Source of the DNA: Bacteroidales bacterium
GTDB taxonomy: Bacteria; Bacteroidota; Bacteroidia; Bacteroidales; GCA-2711565
Reading direction: 5' to 3'
Assembly (NCBI GenBank): GCA_963675215.1
Contig: OY775914.1
Span: forward strand, 3,339,181 to 3,403,180
DNA: 64,000 nt
Below the pieces are notes generated by a model. The model was not told where the DNA came from. It saw nothing but the letters and a program-made list of their open reading frames with translations, and did not search any database. Each line of letters opens with the position of its first letter. Position 1 is the stretch's first letter. Below are positions 5,906 to 55,747 of this stretch, in pieces. Position numbers and translations under genes: made by a program.

Positions 5906-6010
5906 GTGATTATTGGTTATTAGTTATTAGTTATTAGTTATTGGTGATCAGTTATTAGTTGTCAGTTAAAGATTCTTTATTCTAATTTTTAACTTCTGTT
6001 TTCTTACTAT
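5906..6010. repeat. heptad-periodic tract (TTAGTTA-type) starting at the base after the copA stop
   Basis: gtgatta|ttggtta|ttagtta|ttagtta|ttagtta|ttggtga|tcagtta|ttagttg|tcagtta, then the ..TTC-ending heptads aagattc|tttattc|taatttt|taacttc|tgttttc. Confidence 0.8.
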
Positions 6011-6200: not shown

Positions 6201-6395
6201 ATCCATATCTTTAATCCTGAAATTCTTCCCGTCCGGATAGCAGCTGTTGAATAAGAATTCCAAATTCCCCGTAATTTAAAAATTGTTGTCGTTTTACTTT
6301 TAATCGACAAAATATATGATAATATAGAACCTGTGCAACACATCCCAACCTGTCCACCTATAGAGGATTTGGATGTTATTGGCTAAGAAACGTAA
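6201..6395 (+). repeat. conserved intergenic core, copy X (paralogous to 50711..50875)
   Basis: By-eye alignment: 'TATCTTTAATCCTGAAATTCTTCC..TGTTGAATAAGAATTCCAAATTCCCCGTAATTTA..TTAATCGACAAAATATATGATAAT' versus 'TATCTTTATTCCTGAAATTCTTCC..TGTTGATTAGAATTTCAAACTCCCCATTTATTGA..TTAATCGAAAAAATATATAATTGC'. Weaker similarity continues to a GTTA(T/C) site. Confidence 0.7.
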
Positions 6396-6444
6396 ACATA
6401 TTATTAGCCAGCAATAATTAATAACCTAATTTAAAGGACATCAA

Positions 6445-7696: not shown

Positions 7697-7842
7697 ACTT
7701 TCACTAACACCTGTAAATAAAATATGGCAAATCCGTACTCGGCTGAGAAGTAGGCAATTCGTTAACACCTTCCTTTCCGTCGGAAAGAAAAATACTCCGA
7801 AATATTGCAACGTTCCATAGCCTAAAGCTTAGTGCGTTAAGC
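7697..7842 (+). repeat. full-length structured intergenic element A (attC-like imperfect dyad)
   Basis: Starts CACTAACACC..ATATGGCA and ends CCATAG..TTAGTGCGTTAAGC. Nested pairings: cactaa/ttagtg, tatgg/ccata, gcaat/attgc, and a central ctttcc-gtc-ggaaag hairpin. The right end GTTAAGC fits GTTRRRY. Confidence 0.6.
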
Positions 7843-8807: not shown

Positions 8808-9341
8808 ATGAAAAAAACTATTGTAATATTTTATTCAAATAAAGGAAGTAACAGATATTTAGCAAAAAGAATTTCAGAGAATCTGAACTGTGAAATTGAA
8901 GAAATCAAGCCTAAAATAGATGCTCATCTTTTTTTGCTGTTCGGATTAAGTTTCGGAAATAAAAAACCCAAAATAAACTTAGCAGCATACGATAGAGTTG
9001 TTTTGTGTGGACCCATTTGGATGGGTAAATTTATTGCTCCTTTAAAAGGGTTTGTAAAAAAACACATAAATAATATAAATGAATTGGTTTTTGCAACTTG
9101 TTGTGGAAGTAGTTTTGACATGAAAGATAAAAAATTCGGTCATGGACTTGTATTTAAAGAAATCAAAGAAATGCTAAAAGGTAAGTGCATACATTGTGAG
9201 GCTTTTCCAATTACTTTAGTAATCCCTGACGACAACAAAGAAAACCCTGATACGGTAATGAAAACACGACTTACAGATGATAATTTCAAAGGTGAAATAC
9301 TAAATAGATTTAATGATTTTATTAAAAAAATATCAGCTTGA
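8808..9341 (+). CDS. flavodoxin-like fold protein
   Basis: 177-aa ORF beginning 'KKTIVIFYSNKGSNRYLAKRI' (flavodoxin-type beta1-loop). The rest is not diagnostic. Confidence 0.5.
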   Translation: MKKTIVIFYSNKGSNRYLAKRISENLNCEIEEIKPKIDAHLFLLFGLSFGNKKPKINLAAYDRVVLCGPIWMGKFIAPLKGFVKKHINNINELVFATCCGSSFDMKDKKFGHGLVFKEIKEMLKGKCIHCEAFPITLVIPDDNKENPDTVMKTRLTDDNFKGEILNRFNDFIKKISA

Positions 9342-9367
9342 AAAAATATTAAAAATTTGTATTGAAA

Positions 9368-9424
9368 CTACGATAGCAAAACAGTAGCTATAAAACATGC
9401 AAATCTTTACTGGCTGAAACGTAG
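9368..9424 (+). repeat. left-half copy C of the structured element
   Basis: 'ctacgaTAGCAaaacagtagctataaaacATGCAAATCTTTACTGGCTGAAACGTAGG' aligns with the left half of A ('ATGGCAAATCCGTACTCGGCTGAGAAGTAGG'). It ends where the convergent LytTR gene terminates. Confidence 0.55.
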
Positions 9425-9436
9425 GAGGCGCGCTGA

Positions 9437-12063: not shown

Positions 12064-12092
12064 TTTATTTGGTTTTAGATTATTATTTATAG

Positions 12093-12134
12093 TTACTGGT
12101 TTCTTGATACTTGATACTTGTTTCTGGTTACTTG
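12093..12134. repeat. heptad-periodic tract
   Basis: ttactgg|tttcttg|atacttg|atacttg|tttctgg|ttacttg, between two minus-strand genes. Confidence 0.7.
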
Positions 12135-12175
12135 TTTAAAAATATTCTCATTCATAACTTATAATTCATTACTTA

Positions 12176-14450: not shown

Positions 14451-14618
14451 TGAATCTTGTATCTATTTTCTAGTTACTGGTTCCTAGTTACTGGTTCCTA
14501 GTTACTGGTTTCTGGTTCCAATTTTCTGGATTCTAAATTCTGTCTTCTGGTTTCTCTATTCTATTTTTCTGTCTTGTATCTAGTATCTATTATCTTGTAT
14601 CTTAAATCTGTTTTCTTT
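14451..14618. repeat. long heptad-periodic tract (about 24 heptads, including 14-nt units TAGTTACTGGTTCC)
   Basis: tgaatct|tgtatct|attttct|agttact|ggttcct|agttact|ggttcct|agttact|ggtttct|ggttcca|attttct|ggattct|aaattct|gtcttct|ggtttct|ctattct..., then tatctag|tatctat|tatcttg|tatctta. Confidence 0.85.
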
Positions 14619-15089
14619 CAGATCAAGTCAGGCATTTGTTAACACTTTGTTCATAAAAAACGAGATGGGATTTATGACAAATTTGGCAAGGATCTTACCT
14701 TTATATTAGCATTGATAATGATTTGTTTACGAGTTCTCTCAAAACTCTTTTGAAGCATGGTAGCTGAGGCCTTATTACTGAATTAAGAAGGCTTTCAATT
14801 AATCTCAGATTGAAAATCAGCACTTAAATAAATGCTCAAAATACCATCCTGCACGTATGGTGTAAATTAATTATGATGCCAACACCAGAAGCTAATAATT
14901 AGGTTTTAGCTAGTGCAATTCGAAACAGCAGAAATAAGGTATCAGTATCCTCGAATTGCAATCAAATTCTGTCAAATTTCATAACTGCTCCCCACACTTG
15001 AGGAATCAGTTTCATCATTCACTAAGTATCATAATGCATATAGCATTAGAACTATTTAAATCTAATTAATAATTAAAACAGACTACAAA

Positions 15090-42165: not shown

Positions 42166-42282
42166 AGATCACGCTCAGCGTCATTGAAGCAAATTTTCTT
42201 TTCTGCCCTAAGTGCCTTTTAATCAATTTGGTAATCGCACTTCCTACACTAAACCTTCTGCATTTTAGATACAAATGGTGTT

Positions 42283-42357
42283 TATACCTGTTTTACAAAT
42301 TGAGTATTTCCTACCTAAAATTTCCATTGATGAGTTACTAAATTCGCTGCATAACTA
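42283..42357 (+). promoter_or_regulatory. conserved upstream box, copy 1 (shared with 44342..44402)
   Basis: 'TATACCTGTTTTACAAATTGAGTATTTCCTACCTAAAATTTCCAT...GCTGCATAACT' versus 'TATACTTGATTTTACAAAACAGGTATTTCCTACCTAAATATTTACAT...GCTGCTTATAACT'. The 16-mer GTATTTCCTACCTAAA is identical. Confidence 0.6.
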
Positions 42358-42485
42358 AATGTTAATTTAATTAATTACTAATTAAAACCATGTCTACTTC
42401 AAGAAAGCTCAAAAACTTAGACAGGTTTACACAATTAAATAATTAATTCCATTTCAAACTAATCATAAACTTAAAATCAAACAAA

Positions 42486-43097
42486 ATGCAAAATTTAAAA
42501 ACAGTTTTTCAAAAGGCACCTGCTAATTCAGGGTCATCAGCAGATGGTATTAGCGTAACATCATTCGGACAGGGACAATGTTCTGGTGTAACATATACAG
42601 TATCTCCACATTCTGTAATTGATGTTGATTTTACCATTAACATGCTTTGTGTAACACCTGAGAATGTTGACACATTGGACAAATTAATCAGGAGTATGCT
42701 AAGTGCTTCAAAGCAGCATGAATATGATCAGTTAACCAAGAAAAGTTCAAGTGGCGGAAGAGGTTTCTTCTTGTTTTTCTCAGGTGGTGGAAGTCGTTCA
42801 TCTGTGAGCCAAACTACTCATACCATGGATTCGTTTGGACTTACCAGAGAGCAACAATCAAAAATTATTGATTCAATGCTGGCATTGGTTGCAAAAACAA
42901 ACAAATTTAGTTTTAAGGGCAAAATTTCAAATCAACAATACGATTATGCCGTTTCAGGAAATCTGTTTGCGATTGTGATGGATGCAACAATTCAAAAAGG
43001 TGAAACCCATACACAAGTCAGATTTTTAGCACCTAATGTACACATGAACAGTACAGATGGCGCTGCTAGTTTGCCAGTTGAAGGCAAGCTTTATTAA
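42486..43097 (+). CDS. orphan protein with a central Gly/Ser/Phe-rich segment
   Basis: 203-aa ORF with no signal peptide; 'KKSSSGGRGFFLFFSGGGSRSSVSQTT' lies mid-protein. Flanked by the conserved box upstream and a strong terminator downstream. Confidence 0.65.
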   Translation: MQNLKTVFQKAPANSGSSADGISVTSFGQGQCSGVTYTVSPHSVIDVDFTINMLCVTPENVDTLDKLIRSMLSASKQHEYDQLTKKSSSGGRGFFLFFSGGGSRSSVSQTTHTMDSFGLTREQQSKIIDSMLALVAKTNKFSFKGKISNQQYDYAVSGNLFAIVMDATIQKGETHTQVRFLAPNVHMNSTDGAASLPVEGKLY

Positions 43098-43121
43098 TCC
43101 TATATTTTAGTCTAGTGTATT

Positions 43122-43170
43122 AAAATAATACCTCCGGGTTATGATTAACCAGGAGGTATTATTTTAAAAC
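43122..43170 (+). terminator. rho-independent terminator
   Basis: aaaataatacctcc / ggaggtattatttt 14-bp perfect stem, with an inner ggtt/aacc extension, ending in a T-run. Confidence 0.8.
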
Positions 43171-43248
43171 TATAAATATCTTATCGTACCTGCCTGTTTT
43201 TGATACTGATAATATAATTTGTTTTGGAATTTGTAGGAACATATCAGA

Positions 43249-44256
43249 ATGAGATATGATAAAATCTTAAAAATGTATACAATAGGTACAAACGAAAGCC
43301 GCAATTACTCAGTGAAAAAGCTACAGAATCTAAAACAAAAACACAATTCCGGCATAGGATATATTTGTGCGCTTTTGTTATTCACTTTTGTATTTCATTT
43401 AAACACGAATGGACAATGCATTAGAACAAGAAACACTCGCAACTGGGATTCAAAATTCACGATTGGTATAGAACGCGGTATTGCATCACAAATAATAAGA
43501 GGCAACTCAAGTCTGAATTTCACAAGTATCCCGACTAACTCAGAAGCCGCTATAAATTTAAGTGAAACAAGATTATTTGACCAGCATCTTAGCTCATCTG
43601 CACTCATTGGAATTGAGGCTTTGTATAAAATTACGCCTGCAATTTCAATAGGCTTAGCCTATCAATTCCGAAACCAGAATACCTATAATTCAAAGATGAT
43701 TTTTAATCAGGATAAGTTAATCCTATCAAATGATTTAGCGGTGTCTTCATTCGGAGAATTTAAACTTAATTCGGATATCAGAAATACATCCATTTCTGTG
43801 GTTACCCATTTAAATATCTTCAATTTCAGCCTTACAAACGAACATGCCGGTTCATTCGAGATTGGCCTTGGAGGCGGAATATCTTTCTTTAAAATAAAAT
43901 CCTTTGTATCACAAGCTTTCTTAAGAATGGACATTCAAAATGATTATGTTGAGGGCAGATACATATTAGGTCCCGGAAATATTTCACCTGAAACCAAAAG
44001 ATCAGCATCCTGCACTTGGCAATTGATCACCGCTTTAAATTTAAAGTCGACTTATTCGCCTGATATTAAGATAGGATTCAGAATAAGCAGTTTAGGACAT
44101 TTTATTATTTTGAAAAGAAATAAAGAAATGCATCAATTGTTCAAACTCACCAGTGCGAATACAGGCTCACAAGATCAGGAATTATCTCTATTATCAACAA
44201 ATAGCAGCAGAGAAATTATCCTCAATGAGATTTTTATTAGAATTTATTTATGGTAG
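43249..44256 (+). CDS. putative outer-membrane beta-barrel protein
   Basis: Hydrophobic signal-like segment 'IGYICALLLFTFVFHLNTNGQ', alternating-residue strands, and a C-terminal aromatic end 'IFIRIYLW'. The start (43249 or 43273) is uncertain. Confidence 0.55.
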   Translation: MRYDKILKMYTIGTNESRNYSVKKLQNLKQKHNSGIGYICALLLFTFVFHLNTNGQCIRTRNTRNWDSKFTIGIERGIASQIIRGNSSLNFTSIPTNSEAAINLSETRLFDQHLSSSALIGIEALYKITPAISIGLAYQFRNQNTYNSKMIFNQDKLILSNDLAVSSFGEFKLNSDIRNTSISVVTHLNIFNFSLTNEHAGSFEIGLGGGISFFKIKSFVSQAFLRMDIQNDYVEGRYILGPGNISPETKRSASCTWQLITALNLKSTYSPDIKIGFRISSLGHFIILKRNKEMHQLFKLTSANTGSQDQELSLLSTNSSREIILNEIFIRIYLW

Positions 44257-44341
44257 CATTTAAATAAAAACGTTGGCGGTGAATGCAGCATCAGAGCCTG
44301 TCGCTAAAATATTATGCAATCTGTAAGGCATAAATAGTAAT

Positions 44342-44402
44342 TATACTTGATTTTACAAAACAGGTATTTCCTACCTAAATATTTACATAGGCTGCTTATA
44401 AC
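44342..44402 (+). promoter_or_regulatory. conserved upstream box, copy 2
   Basis: See copy 1. Located about 40-100 nt upstream of the 44440 ORF. Confidence 0.6.
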
Positions 44403-44439
44403 TTAGCCATAACTTGTTAGATTATATGGTTAAAAAGTT

Positions 44440-45102: not shown

Positions 45103-45166
45103 CATAAAAAATCCTTGCCCATGTTAATATTGAAAGTCAGATAAGAAGTGGAGTTCAGAAACCACT

Positions 45167-45240
45167 ATAACAAACGAAACCTTCCCGAATTGGTTAAAAC
45201 TTGGGGGCGAAAACCGAAAAGCCTTATGAGTAGGAATAAC
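45167..45240 (+). repeat. possible divergent copy I of the structured element
   Basis: 'ATAACAAACGAAACC....GGTTAAAACTTGGGGGCGAAAACC....TATGAGTAGGAATAAC' shares the TAACAAA start and the GAGTAGG block with copies A and C. Confidence 0.3.
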
Positions 45241-45255
45241 TAAATATTATTAATT

Positions 45256-45711
45256 ATGGCTATTTTAAATTTTGTTGGACGCGTTAACATTGCAGTCCGT
45301 ATCGTAACAGAGAAGTACCCTAACGCAAAATTGTATGAAGCAGAAGGCGTATCTTCAACAGGATTGACTACTGATCCTCTAAAAATTGATAAACTAAAGG
45401 TCGTTTTTCAAAACAGTAATAACACAACTGTTATTATTAAATCAACTGGTTGGGGAGAATTTGGAGAACCAGAATTAATTCCTTACCCATGGTGTGAAGA
45501 TGTTGTTATTCAATGGCCTGTAAAAATGGATTTGGCAGAAGCCAATCAACTAAAAGAGGCTGCTGGTTACAAAGCCTCCTATGGTGCAGTAACTCTTCGT
45601 AATCCTTTAGGACCAAAAATTGGCAATCCTTATTACATTTTTGGCAGCAATCCAAGAGAACCGTATATTTTTGTGGACACGATAACCAAAGATGTACATG
45701 CTGGAAGTTAA
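45256..45711 (+). CDS. orphan small soluble protein
   Basis: 151-aa ORF with no signal peptide and no motif I can name. Confidence 0.6.
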   Translation: MAILNFVGRVNIAVRIVTEKYPNAKLYEAEGVSSTGLTTDPLKIDKLKVVFQNSNNTTVIIKSTGWGEFGEPELIPYPWCEDVVIQWPVKMDLAEANQLKEAAGYKASYGAVTLRNPLGPKIGNPYYIFGSNPREPYIFVDTITKDVHAGS

Positions 45712-46184
45712 TCTGAGTATGGTAAAACGGGCAGTAATTCTACAATTAAAGAATTACTATCCGTTACTTATCTTAATCAAGTACTTGAGGTATATCAACT
45801 TTTATATTGTGCCATCCAAACAGGTGTTTTTTTCTCAAAAACAAATTAAAATCAGATCAGACTTGTATGATGCAGATTAACATCCGATTGCGCTATAAAT
45901 TTATAAACAATCGCTATGACATTTAAATTCCACAATTTCAATCTAGTCAGAGGAAAGCAAATCCTGAACTGAATCAAAAAAATCAATTTTTAACCTGAAA
46001 ACTAAAAAAATACAACAGGCCATTTAAAGCCAGGAATTTAAACTCCATTTCGGGAATTAACAAAAAAAGACAAAATACTTTTTTAAAACCGCAATGAAGA
46101 CACGTTAGTGAAATAAAGAAAATTTATTTTTAATCTAATCTCTCCTGTTCACGCGAGTTATTGCTGATCAATAGCTCACATCAT

Positions 46185-46226
46185 ACTGCTCATTCAGTTC
46201 TCAATACTTGTATGAGCAGTTTTTAT
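46185..46226 (+). terminator. orphan rho-independent terminator in a 730-bp ORF-free region
   Basis: actgctcat / atgagcagt 9-bp perfect stem followed by TTTTT. No credible upstream ORF. Confidence 0.55.
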
Positions 46227-46438
46227 AACTTAAAAACTAGAATTAATAAACACCCTTCAAAAAATCAGAATCCAGCAAACCTGAATTTAAAGAAACAATA
46301 TTTTTACATATTTAAATCATCTCTTATTTTTTTATACTTTTATCTATCTATTTGGATATATTAAATCTATCTACTAACCAAACTATTACAACACTTATTA
46401 TTCATTTTGTTATTTAATTTAACCAATCTATATCAATT

Positions 46439-49400
46439 ATGAAAAAAATAGCCCTTTACCTAAGTTTATTTTTCATACTTCTGTCTTCGACAGGATTTTC
46501 ACAAAGCAATGAGAAAGATGAACTTCTATCTGAAAAAACTTTTAAAGATTTAAAATTTCGAAATATCGGACCGGCTTTCATGTCGGGAAGAATTGCCGAT
46601 ATAGCTATTCATCCTAATGACGACAACACCTGGTACGTTGCCGTTGGATCAGGTGGTGTTTGGAAAACCGTAAATGCAGGAATCACCTGGGAACCCATTT
46701 TCGATAATGAAACTTCATACTCAATCGGCTGTGTAAGTATTGATTCAAAAAATCCAAACAACATTTGGGTTGGAACCGGCGAAAATGTGGGTGGTCGTCA
46801 TGTTGGCTTTGGCGATGGCATTTACAAAAGTGTAGATGCCGGAAAGACATGGAAAAACATGGGTTTAAAACTCTCTGAGCATATCTCAAAAATCATTGTT
46901 CATCCTACGAATTCCGATATTGTATGGGTTGCAGCCCAAGGTCCTTTGTGGAGTAAAGGAGGAGAACGGGGTTTATATAAAACTGTTGATGGTGGAAAAA
47001 CATGGAAAAAGACTTTAGGTGATGATACCTGGACAGGTGTAACTGATCTGGTTATTGATCCCCGAAATCCGGATGTACTTTTTGCTGCAACATGGCAACG
47101 ACATCGATCCGTCGCTTCTTATGTCGGTGGTGGACCCGGATCTGGAATTCATAAAAGTACTGATGGAGGCGACACTTGGCTAAAACTTAGCAGTGGATTA
47201 CCAGAAGAAAACATGGCTAAAATAGGGCTTGCGATCTCACCACAACAACCCGATATTGTTTATGCCGCAATTGAATTAATTCGTGTCAAAGGTGGAATTT
47301 ATCGCAGCAGCAACTCAGGAATGACTTGGGAAAAGCGTTCAAATGTTGTCTCTGGTGCCACGGGACCACATTATTACCAAGAACTTTATGCATCACCTCA
47401 TCAATTCGAACGATTATATTTGGTTGACAACACCATGTTGATTTCGGAAGATGGAGGAAAAAATTTCTCTCGCATGAACAACACCCATAAACATGGTGAT
47501 GAACATGCAGTGGCATTTAAAAAAAACGACCCGGATTATGTGATGGTTGGTTCTGATGGTGGTTTATACGAAAGCTTTGATCATACTAAGAATTGGCGAT
47601 TTATGGAAAATCTTCCGATCACTCAATTTTATAAAGTCGCGCTGGATGATGCGGAACCATTTTATAATATTTATGGAGGAACTCAGGATAATAGCACTCA
47701 AGGCGGACCATCGCGAACAGATAATTTTCAAGGCATTCAAAACTCCGACTGGAGCGTGGTATTAAACTGGGATGGACATCAACCTGCAACAGAGCCCGGC
47801 AATCCAAATATCATGTACGCTGAACGTCAGGAAGGGGCGCTATCACGAATTGACCTAAGCACTGGTGAAGTAATCGATATTCAACCAGCACCAAATGCCG
47901 ATGAAGATTTTGAGCGATTTAATTGGGATGCACCGATTTTGGTGAGCCCGCACTCCCCTACCCGAATTTATTTCGCATCTCAAAGGGTTTGGAAATCCGA
48001 AAACCGTGGTGACGAATGGAAAGCCATTTCTGGTGATTTAACTAAAAATGAATTGCGAATTGCTACACCGCTAATGGATGGAACCCAAAGCTGGGATGCG
48101 GCCTGGGATTTCAATGCCATGTCAAATTATAATACCATTACTTCTTTGGCCGAATCACCAAAACAAGAAGGTTTAATTTATGCCGGAACCGACGATGGAA
48201 CCATTCAAGTGACTGAAGATGGAGGAAACAATTGGCGAAAAGTTGATTTCGGAAAAATTCCGGGACTTCCTAAAACAGCATTTGTAAATGACATTAAAGC
48301 TGATTTATTTGATGCCGGAACCGTTTATGTTTCATTTGATAATCATAAATATGGCGACTTCTCACCCTACTTATACAAAAGTACTGATAAAGGTAAAAGC
48401 TGGAAATCCATCAGTTCAAATATCCCAGATAGAACTTTAATCTGGCGATTGGTTCAGGATCATGTAAAACCTGAATTGATGTTTTGTGCCACTGAGTTCG
48501 GTGTTTATTTTACCATCAATGCAGGCGAAAAATGGATTAAATTAAGTGGAGGGATTCCTACCATTTCCTTCAGAGATATAGCCATTCAAAAACGAGAAAA
48601 TGATTTAGTTGCGGCTTCCTTTGGGCGTGGATTTTTTGTTTTAGACGACTACAGTGTACTTCGTGAAATTACAGAGGAAAAACTTGAAGCAGAAGCCAGT
48701 TTATTCTCAACTCGAAAAGCATGGTGGTATGTTCCCCGTTCTCACCTGAGTTTTGATGAAGAGAAAGGCAGCCAGGGCGCTGATCATTATGTAGCACCTA
48801 ACCCCGATTTTGGCGCCATTTTCACTTACTTCTTAAAAGATGATTTGAAAACCAAAGAAAAGATCAGACAGGAAAAAGAAAAAAACTTGAGCAAACAATC
48901 CAAAGCAATTTCCTTTCCCGGATGGGATGAGCTGCTTGATGAAGTAAGGGAAGAAATGCCCGGCATTTATATTGTTGTCAGCGATGCAACTGGCAAAGTA
49001 ATTAGAAGGGTAAAAGGACCTTCAACAAAAGGATTTCACCGTGTGAGTTGGGATTTACGTTACCCGGCTACCAGTGCAATTCGTTTGGACGAAACTAGTT
49101 CAAATCAAACATCAGGTCTTTTGGCTGCCCCCGGAACCTATACTGCCGAAATGGTAAAATACGCAAACGGAAAAATCAGCAAGCTCTCCGAAGCCATTTC
49201 TTTTGAGGTGGTGCCTTTAAAGTCGGGTGCATTGAAGGGTGCTTCGATGGAGGAAGTTGATGCTTTCTGGCGTGCATACGAAAAAGTATCTCGCGAAGTT
49301 TCTGGAATGGAAATAGAACTGGCAAATGCTTTAAATAAAATTAAAGCAATGCAAAAAGCTCTATTGAGCTCATCTTCAAAACCAGGAACTTTGGAAACAC

Positions 49401-49696
49401 AATTATTTGAAGTTCATCAAACACTGCTAAATTTGGATATGGAACTATACGGCCATCAGGCTAAACGACAGGTTGGCGAAAAAACCAAACCCAATATTGG
49501 TCAGCGCATGTTCAGACTTGAGTTGGGAATTAGTCGTTCAACCTACGGCCCCACTCCTACCCACAGAAAACAATTAAAAATTGTAAACGATCAGTTGTCT
49601 GCAATCATCACTAAATTGGAAAAAGCAATGCAGGAAATGGATGTTTTGGGTAAAACCCTGAAAGATCATGGTGCTCCCTTGGTTGAAGGAAGATAA
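46439..49696 (+). CDS. secreted BNR/Asp-box (sortilin/VPS10-like) repeat protein
   Basis: Signal peptide; repeated Asp-boxes 'SVDAGKTW', 'TVDGGKTW', 'STDGGDTW', 'SSNSGMTW', 'TEDGGNNW', 'STDKGKSW'. Confidence 0.85.
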   Translation: MKKIALYLSLFFILLSSTGFSQSNEKDELLSEKTFKDLKFRNIGPAFMSGRIADIAIHPNDDNTWYVAVGSGGVWKTVNAGITWEPIFDNETSYSIGCVSIDSKNPNNIWVGTGENVGGRHVGFGDGIYKSVDAGKTWKNMGLKLSEHISKIIVHPTNSDIVWVAAQGPLWSKGGERGLYKTVDGGKTWKKTLGDDTWTGVTDLVIDPRNPDVLFAATWQRHRSVASYVGGGPGSGIHKSTDGGDTWLKLSSGLPEENMAKIGLAISPQQPDIVYAAIELIRVKGGIYRSSNSGMTWEKRSNVVSGATGPHYYQELYASPHQFERLYLVDNTMLISEDGGKNFSRMNNTHKHGDEHAVAFKKNDPDYVMVGSDGGLYESFDHTKNWRFMENLPITQFYKVALDDAEPFYNIYGGTQDNSTQGGPSRTDNFQGIQNSDWSVVLNWDGHQPATEPGNPNIMYAERQEGALSRIDLSTGEVIDIQPAPNADEDFERFNWDAPILVSPHSPTRIYFASQRVWKSENRGDEWKAISGDLTKNELRIATPLMDGTQSWDAAWDFNAMSNYNTITSLAESPKQEGLIYAGTDDGTIQVTEDGGNNWRKVDFGKIPGLPKTAFVNDIKADLFDAGTVYVSFDNHKYGDFSPYLYKSTDKGKSWKSISSNIPDRTLIWRLVQDHVKPELMFCATEFGVYFTINAGEKWIKLSGGIPTISFRDIAIQKRENDLVAASFGRGFFVLDDYSVLREITEEKLEAEASLFSTRKAWWYVPRSHLSFDEEKGSQGADHYVAPNPDFGAIFTYFLKDDLKTKEKIRQEKEKNLSKQSKAISFPGWDELLDEVREEMPGIYIVVSDATGKVIRRVKGPSTKGFHRVSWDLRYPATSAIRLDETSSNQTSGLLAAPGTYTAEMVKYANGKISKLSEAISFEVVPLKSGALKGASMEEVDAFWRAYEKVSREVSGMEIELANALNKIKAMQKALLSSSSKPGTLETQLFEVHQTLLNLDMELYGHQAKRQVGEKTKPNIGQRMFRLELGISRSTYGPTPTHRKQLKIVNDQLSAIITKLEKAMQEMDVLGKTLKDHGAPLVEGR

Positions 49697-49716
49697 AGCA
49701 GATTTAAGCAAAGTGA

Positions 49717-49757
49717 ATTTATTCGGCTGTGAGATTCTTATGGCCGAATATTTTTTT
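49717..49757 (+). terminator. rho-independent terminator
   Basis: attcggc / gccgaat stem followed by ATTTTTTT. Confidence 0.7.
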
Positions 49758-49816
49758 GTACCCCAATTAAACAATACTTTTATATTCCTTTATTAAAAGG
49801 GAATAATAATTTATAC

Positions 49817-50539
49817 ATGCCTAAAAAAATCAAAACATTCTTAAACTGGAGTTCGGGTAAGGATGCCGCCATGGCTCTTTATTATATGCAACAAAGCCCG
49901 GATTTTCAAGTCGATCATTTGCTTATTTCCGTCAATGGACATTTAGATCGGGTGTCAATGCATGGCGTTCGCACTTCGCTCTTAAAAATGCAGGTTGAGG
50001 CCATTGGCCTGCCTTATTCTATAATTAAATTACCGGAAGAACCCAGCATGGATACCTATGAAGCTATCATGTCGGTGCAAGTAAAAAAGCTACAAAGTGA
50101 AGGATTCACCTGTGCTGCTTTTGGAGATATTTTTCTGGAAGATCTTCGTGAATATCGAGAAAAAAAACTGAAAGAAATTAATATGCAAGCGGCTTTCCCT
50201 TTATGGAACAAGAACACCAAAACACTTTTAAACGAGTTTTTAGATCATGGTTTTAAAGCCATTGTGGTTTGCATTAATTCCAATTTATTGGATGCTTCTT
50301 TTGCCGGTCGGGTCATCGATAAAGATTTTATAAAAGATTTGCCTGGCAACGTTGACCCTTGCGGAGAAAATGGTGAATTTCACACCTTTTGTTTTGATGG
50401 CCCTATTTTTAAACAGCCCATTGATTTTACAATTGGCGAAAAAATATTTAAAGAATACAAAACACCTAAAGGAGACAATAAAGAAAATGACAGCAACATG
50501 GGATTTTGTTTTTGCGACCTGATTCCGAAAATCAGTTGA
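49817..50539 (+). CDS. Dph6-related / MJ0570-type ATP pyrophosphatase (PP-loop) domain protein
   Basis: 'WSSGKDAAMAL' PP-loop variant and 'GENGEFHTF' motif. Confidence 0.75.
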   Translation: MPKKIKTFLNWSSGKDAAMALYYMQQSPDFQVDHLLISVNGHLDRVSMHGVRTSLLKMQVEAIGLPYSIIKLPEEPSMDTYEAIMSVQVKKLQSEGFTCAAFGDIFLEDLREYREKKLKEINMQAAFPLWNKNTKTLLNEFLDHGFKAIVVCINSNLLDASFAGRVIDKDFIKDLPGNVDPCGENGEFHTFCFDGPIFKQPIDFTIGEKIFKEYKTPKGDNKENDSNMGFCFCDLIPKIS

Positions 50540-50665
50540 CTGGTTGTTGGTTGTTGGTGATTAGTGACTGGTTCTGAATTTAGTAATCAGATTCTAACAA
50601 TCTATTTTTCTTTTTTCTTTTTTCTTTTTTCTACATTCTGCATTCTAACTTCTCATTTTCAAATT
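50540..50665. repeat. heptad-periodic tract (about 18 heptads) starting at the base after the stop codon
   Basis: ctggttg|ttggttg|ttggtga|ttagtga|ctggttc|tgaattt|agtaatc|agattct|aacaatc|tattttt|ctttttt|ctttttt|ctttttt|ctacatt|ctgcatt|ctaactt|ctcattt|tcaaatt. Confidence 0.85.
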
Positions 50666-50677
50666 AGCACATCATCA

Positions 50678-50705
50678 AACTTGCCTGTTGCAAGCAGGTT
50701 TTCAA
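50678..50705 (+). terminator. terminator-like hairpin
   Basis: aaacttgcctg-ttg-caagcaggttt imperfect stem followed by TTC. Confidence 0.45.
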
Positions 50706-50710
50706 ATTTA

Positions 50711-50875
50711 TTCCTTATCTTTATTCCTGAAATTCTTCCTGCCCTTGGGAAGTAATTGTTGATTAGAATTTCAAACTCCCCATTTATTGAATTTTTAGCT
50801 CGGTTTTAATTAATCGAAAAAATATATAATTGCACAAAAGCTAGCTAATACATGTCTATATAGGTGAATATAGTT
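50711..50875 (+). repeat. conserved intergenic core, copy Y (paralogous to 6201..6395)
   Basis: See copy X. Confidence 0.7.
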
Positions 50876-50953
50876 ACTAAAGATGCCCATATATAGTCGT
50901 TAGGTTTAATGCAAAAAAAGGGAACAAAAATTGACTACGTGTACTAATTTTTA

Positions 50954-50961
50954 TATTTTTG
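50954..50961 (+). promoter_or_regulatory. Bacteroidota-type -7 box candidate (TATTTTTG = TAnnTTTG) in front of the Fic gene
   Basis: Matches the TAnnTTTG consensus, 18 nt before the ATG at 50979. Confidence 0.35.
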
Positions 50962-50978
50962 GTACAAATATTGAAAAC

Positions 50979-52061
50979 ATGGGACAAAATGCACCATATC
51001 GGATTCTAGAAAAACTACCTCCCCCAAGAGAAAAAGTAGAAACAATCAAGATATTAAGAAATGTGAGCAAGGCAACTGCTGCATTGGCCGAATTAAAAGG
51101 TATTGCCAAAACAATCCCTAATCAGGCAATGTTGATTAATGCGATTGTTCTTCAAGAAGCAAAAGGCAGTTCAGAAATAGAGAACATCATCACGACACAA
51201 GATGAGCTATACAAAGCTTTGACTGTAAACAGATCAATCATTTCAGCAGGAACAAAAGAAGTAGTAAACTATAGAAAATCAATTTTTCAGGGGTTTGACT
51301 TGATTAAGAAACAAGGACTTTTAAAAGTAAACGATATTGTAAACATCCAACAAGAGTTAGTTGGAAACAATTCTGGTATAAGAAGTATGCCTGGAACCGT
51401 ACTTAAAAATGACACAACAGGAGAGATTGTTTACACTCCTCCTCAGGACAAACAAGAAATATTAGATTTACTTTCAAATTTCATTGATTACTACAACCAA
51501 AACAATCAGGAGTTATCACCTTTGATAAATCTTGCAATTTTGCACCATCAATTTGAGAGCATTCACCCATTTTATGACGGGAATGGAAGAACTGGTAGAA
51601 TATTGAACATTTTATACCTGATATTAAATGACTTGATAGATATACCAATATTATATCTCAGTTCGTATATCATAGAAAACAAGGCAGGTTATTACCGTTT
51701 ATTAAACCAAACAAATCGTCTGAATGAATGGGAAGAATGGATTTTATTCATGCTCAAGGCTGTTGAAGTCACATCCTTACAAACAATCGAAAAGATAAAT
51801 ACCATTAGACAATTATTAAATCAAACTATAGAAAAAGCACAGATTGATGCTCCTAAAATATATAAGAAAGAGTTGGTTGAATTGCTATTTGAACAACCTT
51901 ATTCAAAAATAGAATTCGTAGTAAACCTCTTAAGGGTCGAAAGAAAAGCAGCATCAAGATACCTAAAGGAGTTAGAGAGAATTGGAATCTTGGAATCTCA
52001 AATAGTTGGTCGAGAAACATTATACATTAATAAAGAACTGATTGAAATATTAAAAAAATAA
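50979..52061 (+). CDS. Fic-family protein (AMPylase-type) with an N-terminal inhibitory helix motif
   Basis: Fic motif 'HPFYDGNGRTGR'; upstream 'GSSEIEN' fits the (S/T)xxxE(G/N) auto-inhibition motif; C-terminal winged-helix-like tail. The ATG at 50979 is preferred to the TTG at 50931. Confidence 0.85.
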   Translation: MGQNAPYRILEKLPPPREKVETIKILRNVSKATAALAELKGIAKTIPNQAMLINAIVLQEAKGSSEIENIITTQDELYKALTVNRSIISAGTKEVVNYRKSIFQGFDLIKKQGLLKVNDIVNIQQELVGNNSGIRSMPGTVLKNDTTGEIVYTPPQDKQEILDLLSNFIDYYNQNNQELSPLINLAILHHQFESIHPFYDGNGRTGRILNILYLILNDLIDIPILYLSSYIIENKAGYYRLLNQTNRLNEWEEWILFMLKAVEVTSLQTIEKINTIRQLLNQTIEKAQIDAPKIYKKELVELLFEQPYSKIEFVVNLLRVERKAASRYLKELERIGILESQIVGRETLYINKELIEILKK

Positions 52062-52068
52062 TGCACTA

Positions 52069-52175
52069 AGCCCAACAAAAGCTATGGTTCATGGCGCTCA
52101 GACAGGTTACGAAATCTTAGGGTTTTCCTGCCTACGGCAGGCAGGTGCCACGTAACCATCGCAATACAGTTAGCG
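52069..52175 (+). repeat. full-length structured intergenic element D (attC-like imperfect dyad)
   Basis: GCCCAACAAAAGCTATGGTTCATGGCG....CCATCGCAATACAGTTAGCG. Nested pairings: aac/gtt, atggtt/aaccat, tggc/gcca, and a central cctgcc-tac-ggcagg hairpin. Starts 8 nt after the Fic stop. Confidence 0.6.
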
Positions 52176-52238
52176 GCAATGTAAAATTTAAACTCCTAGA
52201 AAAAGGAATATTTGTATTAAAAACCTAAACTCAAGATC

Positions 52239-52661
52239 ATGAAAACTTTAACCAAATTATTTTTGTCAGTTTTTATAATTAGTCTTACTTCTTGTAACCA
52301 TTTTAAAGATAAACCTGAATGTATTAACAAAGATAGCTTCTTTGACAATAATGATCCAATGACAGAAACATATCAGGAAAAAGTTAAAGAAGTTTTAAAA
52401 ATTACAACCCCTAATGATTTTAGATATTTTTTCGTAACATTTACTGGCGACAATAATGAATATCTAATGGTGAACATGAGAAACAATGAATATTGTTTTG
52501 ACGCAAAAATATTGGTAGAAAATTGGGATAAATTAGCAGGCATGAGAGAGAAAAAGGGGAGATCGTATCCCGAAGAATTACATAATTTAAAATGGAAATT
52601 AGAAAAATCTGGAGGAAGCGAAAATATAGTCTATCTAGACATGAACAAAATTATTGATTAA
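52239..52661 (+). CDS. small lipoprotein, unknown function
   Basis: Signal peptide plus lipobox 'ISLTSCNH'; 140 aa. Confidence 0.65.
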   Translation: MKTLTKLFLSVFIISLTSCNHFKDKPECINKDSFFDNNDPMTETYQEKVKEVLKITTPNDFRYFFVTFTGDNNEYLMVNMRNNEYCFDAKILVENWDKLAGMREKKGRSYPEELHNLKWKLEKSGGSENIVYLDMNKIID

Positions 52662-52663
52662 CA

Positions 52664-52720
52664 CTGCTGCTAACAAAGGCTCATAAAACATGGCTAATTC
52701 TTACTCAGCAGAAACGCATT
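52664..52720 (+). repeat. left-half copy B of the structured element
   Basis: 'ctgctgCTAACAAAGGCTCATAAAACATGGCTAATTCTTACTcagcagAAACGCAT'. ctgctg/cagcag can close a stem. Starts 3 nt after the stop codon. Confidence 0.55.
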
Positions 52721-52747
52721 AATTATAAATATATAAAAACGAAAATC

Positions 52748-53323
52748 ATGAATAGAATTATTATTTTACTCATCTTTTCTCACTTTTTTTCAAATGGCAT
52801 ATCTGCGCAAGACATTCTTGATAAATACACTTCAACCAAATGGGGGTTTACCATTTCTTTTCCTTTCGAGAAAACAAAGAAGGGTAGCCGTTTCGAGGAT
52901 GATAAAACTTTTCAGTTTCACATCAGTCAGTATTACAGAGGGCAATATGATGTAGTCGATATTTCAGTGATAAAATATTCCGATACGCTTGAACTGGTAA
53001 ACAATTACAATTCAATGATTACAGCACTTGAAACATCAAAACTAAGCGATGGATACACGCTGATCGACAGTCTTTGTTCAGAAGTTAAAAGTGCTCATTA
53101 TAACGGGGTTCAAAAAGCTTTTTATAATGAATTCGCTGGTCTGAACAAAGATTATATCATCGTTCGCTTCTTCAAAACAGACCGCTATTTATATAGTCTT
53201 ACGCTTACAGTTCCAAACCTGAAAAGATATAATGAAAATTTGAAAATATTAGCGTCGTTTACCATTCTTACCCAGGATAATCAAACTGGCGCTCCAAAAA
53301 AAGAAAGAAAACGACCCAAATAG
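52748..53323 (+). CDS. secreted protein, unknown function
   Basis: Signal peptide MNRIIILLIFSHFFSNGISAQ; 191 aa; basic tail KKERKRPK. Confidence 0.65.
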   Translation: MNRIIILLIFSHFFSNGISAQDILDKYTSTKWGFTISFPFEKTKKGSRFEDDKTFQFHISQYYRGQYDVVDISVIKYSDTLELVNNYNSMITALETSKLSDGYTLIDSLCSEVKSAHYNGVQKAFYNEFAGLNKDYIIVRFFKTDRYLYSLTLTVPNLKRYNENLKILASFTILTQDNQTGAPKKERKRPK

Positions 53324-53831: not shown

Positions 53832-53860
53832 AATTGTTTGTGCCAAAGTTGACTAATCTT

Positions 53861-53922
53861 AATAAGGGCTTTAAACAATGGCGCCTGCATGCAGTGCAGC
53901 TAAACCATCACTACCAACTGAA
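53861..53922 (+). repeat. short degenerate copy F of the structured element
   Basis: 'AATAAGGGCTTTAAACAATGGCGC-CTGCATGCAG-TGCAGCTAAACCATCACTACCAACTG'. The ATGGC..CCAT frame surrounds a perfect 10-bp palindrome; both ends are mutated relative to D. Confidence 0.45.
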
Positions 53923-54401: not shown

Positions 54402-54438
54402 ACTTTCAAAACTTAGTCGCTAACAAAAACCTAATGAA

Positions 54439-55306: not shown

Positions 55307-55747
55307 ATGAAAACTTCCGAAAACACTGTTGTTGTTGAACAAACTTTTAAAACATCACCTGCGAAGGTGTGGAGTGCCATTACCAATGTGAAAGAAATGA
55401 CACTTTGGTTTTTCGATAATATTCCTTCCTTCAAAGCTGAGGTTGGATTTAAAACACAATTTTTGATTCAGGTAAGAAAAAGAAAATTTACCCACCTTTG
55501 GGAAATAACTGAGGTAATTCCCAATCAAAAAATAACTTATAACTGGAAGTATAAAGAATACCCTGGAGATGCCTACGTGACTTTTGAACTATTTGAAGAA
55601 GAGAAGCAAGTCAGACTCAGAGTCACCATGCTCGTGACTGAAGATTTTCCGGACGATGTTCCTGAATTTACCTGGGATAGCTGCATTGAGGGCTGGAGGT
55701 ATTTTATAGTTGAGCGACTTAAAATTTATTTGCACCGAAGGCGGTAA
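55307..55747 (+). CDS. SRPBCC/AHSA1-like domain protein
   Basis: 'VVVEQTFKTSPAKVWSAITNVKEMTLWF' and the length (146 aa) fit the Aha1/START-like superfamily. Confidence 0.7.
   Translation: MKTSENTVVVEQTFKTSPAKVWSAITNVKEMTLWFFDNIPSFKAEVGFKTQFLIQVRKRKFTHLWEITEVIPNQKITYNWKYKEYPGDAYVTFELFEEEKQVRLRVTMLVTEDFPDDVPEFTWDSCIEGWRYFIVERLKIYLHRRR

Follow-up and report, generated by a model that had tools for sequence, protein, structure and literature searches.

A probable attC-type recombination site behind a Fic gene, and the integron-like system around it, in a Bacteroidales chromosome

Introduction

Is a single imperfect hairpin, found directly behind a Fic-family gene in a Bacteroidales chromosome, a cassette recombination site, and if so, to what system does it belong? 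The hairpin, called element D, lies in a stretch of 64,000 nucleotides (here the window, C1:3339181-3403180) of a genome that consists of one 4.05-Mb contig, C1. A preliminary description of the window proposed that element D is an attC site. Clusters of attC sites and single attC sites that lack an integron integrase are called CALINs and SALINs, respectively (Cury 2016, Neron 2022, Loot 2023). The CALIN definition makes no reference to attI. We compared element D with the rest of its genome and with other genomes of the genus, folded both of its strands, and examined the DNA on either side of it.

Results

Element D occupies 52070-52175 on the + strand. A 107-bp hairpin had been placed at 52069-52175; the element itself stood, and its start moved by one base, since GCCCAAC begins at 52070 and the element has 106 bp. 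Its layout is GCCCAAC-AAAA-GCTATGGTTCATGGCGC...CCTGCCTACGGCAGG...GTGCCACGTAACCATCGC-AATACA-GTTAGCG. On the left are the R'' box (GCCCAAC, 52070-52076), a 4-nt 5' spacer (AAAA, 52077-52080) and the L'' arm (52081-52097), all on the + strand like the remainder of the site. A variable region (52098-52144) holding a GC hairpin (52127-52145) leads to the L' arm (52145-52162), a 6-nt 3' spacer (AATACA, 52163-52168) and the R' box (GTTAGCG, 52169-52175). The core triplets are AAC (52074-52076) and GTT (52169-52171), and the GC-rich hairpin inside the element has 7 bp.

The boxes and stems were as first read. The left box agrees with RYYYAAC, and the right box is GTT followed by bases that deviate and do not fit GTTRRRY. 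The inner pairs of ATGGTT (52084-52089) with AACCAT (52154-52159), the TGGC/GCCA pairing and the central stem CCTGCC-TAC-GGCAGG (52127-52141) were all located in the sequence.

A short-word BLAST search of the same genome gave about 35 copies of the left half of D at 87-96% identity, nearly all of them on the minus strand of C1:2.547-2.627 Mb. The left 54 nt of D were identical to family members in this genome at 52 of 54 positions, and the right 28 nt at 24 of 28. Pattern and HMM scans resolved a main array of about 85 sites of 132-189 nt, all in one orientation over 80 kb (C1:2.547-2.628 Mb). Outside it lay a satellite of 7 sites at 1.31 Mb, and about 15 more sites were scattered. The family has about 100 copies in the genome, with D 710 kb from the main array, and was found in 10 of 13 genomes of the genus. 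A repeat search within the window did not reveal it, because the window copies are too diverged from one another. A strict pattern, RYYYAAC(N35-140)GTTRRRY, gave only chance matches inside genes when run on the window, and missed D.

We assembled an alignment (A1) of 25 non-redundant main-array sites. The sites share a left part of NNNTAAC (or NNNCAAC), a 4-nt spacer and an L'' arm, then a centre that varies and may contain GC-hairpin modules, and on the right an L' arm, a 6-nt spacer and GTTNNNN. The end triplets AAC and GTT were invariant in all 25. The box consensus was NRRTAAC/GTTAYYN (for example TGGTAAC/GTTACCA), and the family as a whole departs from the RYYYAAC/GTTRRRY consensus. In the L stem, 97.5% of the cells of A1 were paired and 23 cells carried double changes, compared with 3.9 in shuffles; when the partner was slid by one column, pairing fell to about 33%.

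The attC covariance-model check was carried out with a model of the genome's own array. This model, R1 (133 positions, 21 pairs), was built from the 25 main-array sites with no window sequence and was used in place of the IntegronFinder attC model; it is specific to this family. With filters off, R1 matched D on the + strand only, over the full length of the model (positions 1-133), at 67.1 bits and with an E-value of 4.6e-16 in the window and 2.9e-14 genome-wide. Element A, a second site of the window at 7702-7834, scored 38.1 bits, and all other R1 matches in the window had E > 0.1. Array sites scored 36-150 bits, those outside the seed alignment 36-65, and the score of D lies in the lower part of this range of real sites. 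By comparison with the other copies, D is confirmed as a real member of the repeat family, far beyond chance.

Elements A and D had been described as having the same architecture. They do belong to the same family, and A is of another sequence subtype. The right box that had been read for A, GTTAAGC, is not at the homologous position: the R' triplet of A is CTT (7828-7830), nine bases earlier, which by homology to the family would be a mutated GTT. A further partial left-half site (ATAAAACATGCAAATC...GAAACGTAGG) was seen at 9342-9436 of the window, after a flavodoxin-like ORF (8808-9341); it is too diverged for the covariance model.

Two other features of the family were observed along the chromosome. 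Between C1:2,569,800 and 2,626,000 many array units recur with a period of 261-268 nt, each made of a 134-nt site and a spacer of about 130-250 nt, with the boxes TGGTAAC/GTTACCA. The repeated units are tiny or 'empty' cassettes, of which some occur in 3-4 tandem copies. From 1.29 to 2.68 Mb the attC sites are on the minus strand, apart from a single one at 2.456 Mb; from 3.1 Mb through 0.01 Mb they are on the plus strand, the window sites at 7702, 52070 and 52668 among them. Their orientation flips with the chromosome half, and the changes of strand fall at the extremes of the GC skew, at about 0.75 and 2.6 Mb. The indicators of the origin conflict, with gene-strand bias and the position of dnaA (3.696 Mb) on one side and the usual GC-skew reading on the other.

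The DNA around D was compared with that of a relative, G011, whose contig G011:C7 showed protein synteny with the window at 75-96% identity across 30 kb (tblastn). The segment 50540-55282 is absent there. This strain-specific islet of 4.7 kb, read on the + strand as a platform and a decayed cassette array, is inserted between a diphthamide-synthase-like gene (49817-50539) and an AHSA1-like gene (55307-55747). In G011 the two flanking genes are 81-82% identical to those of the window and adjacent, with about 95 nt between them, and a tblastn search of G011 gave no match for any of the islet ORFs. The islet contains a Fic gene, D and eight small ORFs on the same strand.

The islet opens, all on the + strand, with a conserved 'core' module of about 145 nt (50699-50842, found by blastn) and an orphan attI-like site (50846-50905) that ends in GTTAGGT (50899-50905) and was recognized by homology to the attI region of the main array. 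The Fic-family gene that follows (50931-52061) has Fic_N, Fic and SoFic-like C domains (Pfam PF13784, PF02661 and PF21248) and is the cargo of the first cassette; its true start may be a downstream ATG. D begins 8 nt past its stop codon, on the same strand, and by this position marks the 3' end of a predicted Fic gene cassette of 1,270 bp (50900-52169). The closest homologue of the Fic gene, a copy in the genome G003 with 82% amino acid identity, has no attC after the gene, so the Fic gene need not be part of a cassette.

The cargo of the second cassette is a 140-aa lipoprotein-like ORF (52239-52661, + strand) with no Pfam match. It is followed on the same strand by a second attC of which only the left half is present (52668-52716; R'' TGCTAAC, spacer and L'', of the 'AAAACATGGCAAA' subtype). 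Over 46 nt this half site was 89-96% identical to about 15 array sites (blastn-short), and it matched nhmmer model positions 2-48 and scored 9.6 bits with R1, its right half and R' box being lost. Downstream, again on the + strand, are an internally deleted attC relic of 57 nt (53857-53913; TCTTAAT AAGG GCT..ATGGCGC..AGC TAAACC ATC), which at 12.5 bits and E 0.35 with R1 is not significant alone, and a possible minimal relic, CGCTAAC-AAAA-ACC (54418-54436), a weak candidate read from the sequence. The half site and the relics indicate a decayed cassette array rather than a single insertion. The main array yielded no paralogues of the islet ORFs.

Relative to G011 the window has two more insertions of its own, at 42166-44439 and 45103-49816. 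One of them holds ORFs of 203 and 335 aa with no Pfam match, and the other a 151-aa ORF and a 1085-aa sortilin/BNR-repeat protein with about 10 paralogues in the genome. Repeats of 7 nt (GTTATTA, GGTTGTT and CTAGTTA types) form intergenic tracts that begin right after stop codons at 5906-5990, 12064-12175, 14500-14700 and 50540-50600 of the window; some of these tracts are unrelated to cassettes.

At the head of the main array, about 90 nt separate the stop codon of a recombinase gene from the first cassette and end in ...TATATACTA|GTTACCG. This attI-like segment has seven homologues in the genome that lack a recombinase, and downstream of each, at a distance of 0.7-1.9 kb, comes an attC of the same orientation. 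The window contains two of them, at 6340-6401 before element A and at 50846-50905 before the Fic gene and D. The latter is a 60-nt homologue, its nearest relative being C1:8575-8645, and its GTT end is 30 nt before the Fic ORF; crossover at this site would fall at G|TT, between 50899 and 50900. A tblastn search for recombinase fragments near the orphan platforms found none.

The core module of the islet was 78.6% identical to C1:2628691-2628611, 77.6% to C1:2682791-2682647 and 74% to window 6201-6320 (blastn). About 20 copies of it are present in the genome, with many more across other genomes of the genus, and it had no Rfam match. Its place is just upstream of the recombinase gene in the main array and just upstream of the attI-like site in the orphan platforms.

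We counted the main array and the seven recombinase-less copies as eight platforms. The junction heptamer and the R'' box of the first attC are exactly complementary in five of the eight. In the two window platforms the junction and R'' match at 2 of 4 positions, which fits their general erosion; for D, this match of its R'' to the upstream attI junction is not significant alone. The platform at C1:8795-9587 (C1:8.6 kb) carries a single cassette with a Gp49/HigB-like toxin and an XRE-HTH antitoxin (HigB/HigA-like). Its attI junction, GTTACCA, exactly complements the attC R'' box, TGGTAAC. Among the loci away from the recombinase it gives, judged by these boxes, the clearest case of an attI x attC product.

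These platforms bear on whether D could be an isolated cassette (a SALIN) that the recombinase put directly into a non-classical genomic attG site, with no attI platform of its own. Genomes often contain isolated attC sites, and for IntI1 experiments have demonstrated insertion straight into a genome (bioRxiv 10.1101/2022.09.11.507474). D is moreover the only full-length site of the islet, and its R'' box fits the upstream junction heptamer poorly. We nevertheless consider such an insertion unlikely, as the Fic gene is preceded by an attI-region homologue, six more of the scattered attC sites are arranged alike, five of the eight platforms have exact phasing, and the half site and relics downstream of D point to a former array.

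Folding of D gave z-scores of -2.06 for the top strand and -1.77 for the bottom strand. Simple folding alone is weak evidence at this level, and with z only about -2 on either strand the case for D rests on its comparison with the other copies. With DNA energy parameters the bottom strand was more stable than the top strand in 72 of 72 array sites (-30.9 vs -27.7 kcal/mol); top-strand A.C mismatches become G.T pairs on the bottom strand. For D the minimum free energy (MFE) structure of the bottom strand was the canonical R/L-box hairpin, that of the top strand was a different fold, and the L-core pairs had ensemble probabilities of 0.74 (bottom) and 0.19 (top). The total energies of D were nearly equal (-16.2 vs -16.9 kcal/mol), with no bottom-strand energy advantage. 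Both D, through this canonical hairpin, and the array sites therefore have the favoured bottom-strand fold of an attC. With the full-length match to the family model, this bears out the identification of D as an attC that had been made from its sequence.

The predicted folds and alignment A1 place a single bulged base of D on the bottom-strand arm that carries AAC, whereas the extrahelical bases of canonical attC sites are found on the other bottom-strand arm, opposite AAC (PMC5027507). In the 'GGCTCATA' subtypes of the genome, the same alignment and predicted folds put the extra base on the canonical arm.

A hairpin in this position could instead act at the RNA level, as a transcription terminator or an mRNA-stabilising hairpin for the Fic gene, its likeness to a recombination site being incidental to its present role. 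The close spacing to the Fic stop codon and the 7-bp GC-rich hairpin would suit this, and a decayed attC could be kept for such a role. However, a terminator scan was negative for D, the hairpin is not followed by a T run, and Rfam gave no match at the gathering threshold in the window and none that was credible at E<=1 in 50500-52800. What is conserved are the R and L boxes, and the GC hairpin is an optional module of the family. We regard an RNA-level role of this kind as very unlikely.

Neighbouring sites of the array showed the phasing of cassettes. The variable bases of R' matched the reverse complement of the R'' box of the next site at 3.65 of 4 positions, compared with 2.19 for the site's own R'' and 2.08 for random pairs, and the match was perfect for 62 of 71 adjacent array sites. 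Read from the boxes, this phasing is the footprint of a crossover at the AAC/GTT core, and it does not tell which strand is cut. With a crossover at the core, each cassette carries a tail that pairs with its own site. The R' box of D, GTTAGCG, agrees at 3 of 4 positions with GTTAGCA, the reverse complement of the next site's R'' (TGCTAAC), and 37% of random pairs reach 3 of 4. The deviating right box of D is as expected if its R' tail belongs to the next cassette, the usual explanation for attC sites, the 3/4 match itself not being significant alone. A selfish REP- or MITE-like palindromic repeat spread by transposition or replication slippage might also give imperfect palindromes of 130-190 nt in about 100 intergenic copies, but it is extremely unlikely here, since such box phasing between neighbours is unexpected for a REP or MITE, the array sites are all oriented with the ORFs and start at one recombinase gene in three species, and there are no terminal duplications.

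We searched the genome for an enzyme that could act on these sites. The best match to the integron-integrase model was a 383-aa ORF at the head of the main array, on the same strand as the cassettes. It scored 178.5 bits with TIGR02249 (cut-off 265), with model positions 182-238 unmatched, and 192.7 bits with NF040815, the XerA/integron-integrase model (cut-off 220). An IntI-specific additional domain around patch III is given as defining and necessary in a passage of PMC9668308 that cites Messier & Roy 2001. Compared with VchIntIA (2A3V), the 383-aa recombinase has about 12 residues where IntI has about 54, an insert of about 40 aa being absent, and it aligns gap-free to archaeal XerA, so it lacks the IntI-specific domain. 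It also has a 105-aa N-terminal extension. As the best TIGR02249 match of the genome is this one, below the cut-off, no IntI with the extra domain was found in the genome.

In G011 and in a further genome, G007, recombinase orthologues with 76-87% identity are found at the head of attC arrays on the same strand; the recombinase scan of genome contigs gave the metagenome-assembled genome (MAG) G011 only. Two of the more distant relatives (47-49% identity) were looked at, one on a mobilisable element and the other with no visible cassette array beside its gene, where only about 630 nt follow on the contig. These two indicate that the wider recombinase family is not array-specific. The recombinase of the integron-like system would belong to a Bacteroidota family with at least one member on a mobilisable element. 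The array-type recombinase nearest to D is 710 kb away.

Element D shows signs of wear. Its centre lacks 41 model positions, two pairs of its L stem are non-canonical (T.C and G.T), and the 3' spacer reads AATACA instead of the AAAACC of the family. The site at C1:9384 shares the left junction of D, GGGTTTTC followed by the CCTNCCTNCGGCAGGCAGG hairpin, and has a second copy of the CCTNCCTNCGGCAGGCAGG hairpin just before L'. From this shared junction and the second copy, D looks like the product of a deletion between two hairpin copies. It was probably derived in this way, by deletion between GC-hairpin modules, from a longer site of the C1:9384 type, with a few point changes since. D is a slightly worn but genuine site. 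That it is still active seems to us possible, if rather doubtful.

Discussion

Element D is very probably an attC-type cassette recombination site at the 3' end of a Fic cassette, and one of about 100 sites in a lineage-specific family. By analogy with integrons, the bottom (- strand) of D would fold into a hairpin in which AAC and GTT form the R box, followed by a 4/6-nt unpaired spacer, an imperfect L stem of about 15 bp in which one base is bulged, and a variable tip. The conserved AAC/GTT core would then be cut by a tyrosine recombinase, and strand exchange would take place with an attI-like site or another attC, again as in integrons. The most likely candidate is the 383-aa XerA/IntI-like enzyme, which would act on D in trans over 710 kb, because it is the only recombinase associated with these arrays.

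The closest known counterparts are the attC sites of sedentary chromosomal integrons, such as the VCRs of Vibrio cholerae. Like these, the sites described here are imperfect palindromes of about 130 nt that are highly similar within the genome, with AAC...GTT cores, unpaired R-L spacers, a covarying stem and a variable tip. They lie 3' of short ORFs on the same strand, their R' tail complements the next R'', their bottom strand is the more stable, and their cargo includes toxin-antitoxin and Fic genes. D itself has the AAC/GTT ends, and an L''/L' stem, unpaired spacer and variable tip, the stem being kept with two defective pairs; of the full RYYYAAC/GTTRRRY consensus, its R'' fits and its R' does not. 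The family differs from VCR-type sites in its boxes (NRRTAAC/GTTAYYN in place of RYYYAAC/GTTRRRY) and in its spacers of 4 and 6 nt, the subtype of D differs in having, in the predicted folds, the single bulge on the arm that carries the bottom-strand AAC, and the array recombinase differs in lacking the IntI extra domain and in being transcribed in the direction of the cassettes.

Taken by itself, the islet of D has an attC without a nearby integron integrase, as CALINs and SALINs do. It is small, with one full attC and remnants, it has no flanking transposase, and no recombinase gene lies within hundreds of kb. In contrast to a CALIN or SALIN, it opens with its own attI-like site and a conserved upstream module, and at least seven such recombinase-less platforms are found in the one genome. 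The main array in turn resembles a complete integron (intI, attI, Pc and array) in having a tyrosine recombinase, an adjacent junction site and about 85 cassettes, but the recombinase falls below the IntI cut-offs, the insert of about 40 aa is absent, and an N-terminal extension of 105 aa is present. Because no IntI with the extra domain occurs in the genome, the surrounding system is integron-like and not a canonical integron.

We tentatively propose, at a little short of even confidence, that D is an outpost of this integron-like system, in which a recombinase without the IntI domain and at least seven recombinase-less attI landing pads would be combined, the pads being loaded in trans by the single distant recombinase. 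The IntI-specific domain is regarded as essential for reading folded attC sites. If our proposal is true, folded single-strand cassette capture needs no IntI domain, or it arose a second time.

Alone, D is an ordinary decayed attC, and its context matters more. That context links a stray site with a large cassette array of an uncultured Bacteroidales genus, an array that standard integron finders would label 'CALIN' because its recombinase fails the IntI test. The stray cassettes that sit behind attI-like sites of their own suggest dispersed landing pads rather than random insertion. This makes it possible to test directly whether attC recombination requires the IntI extra domain and whether an attI site can be functional far from the integrase gene.
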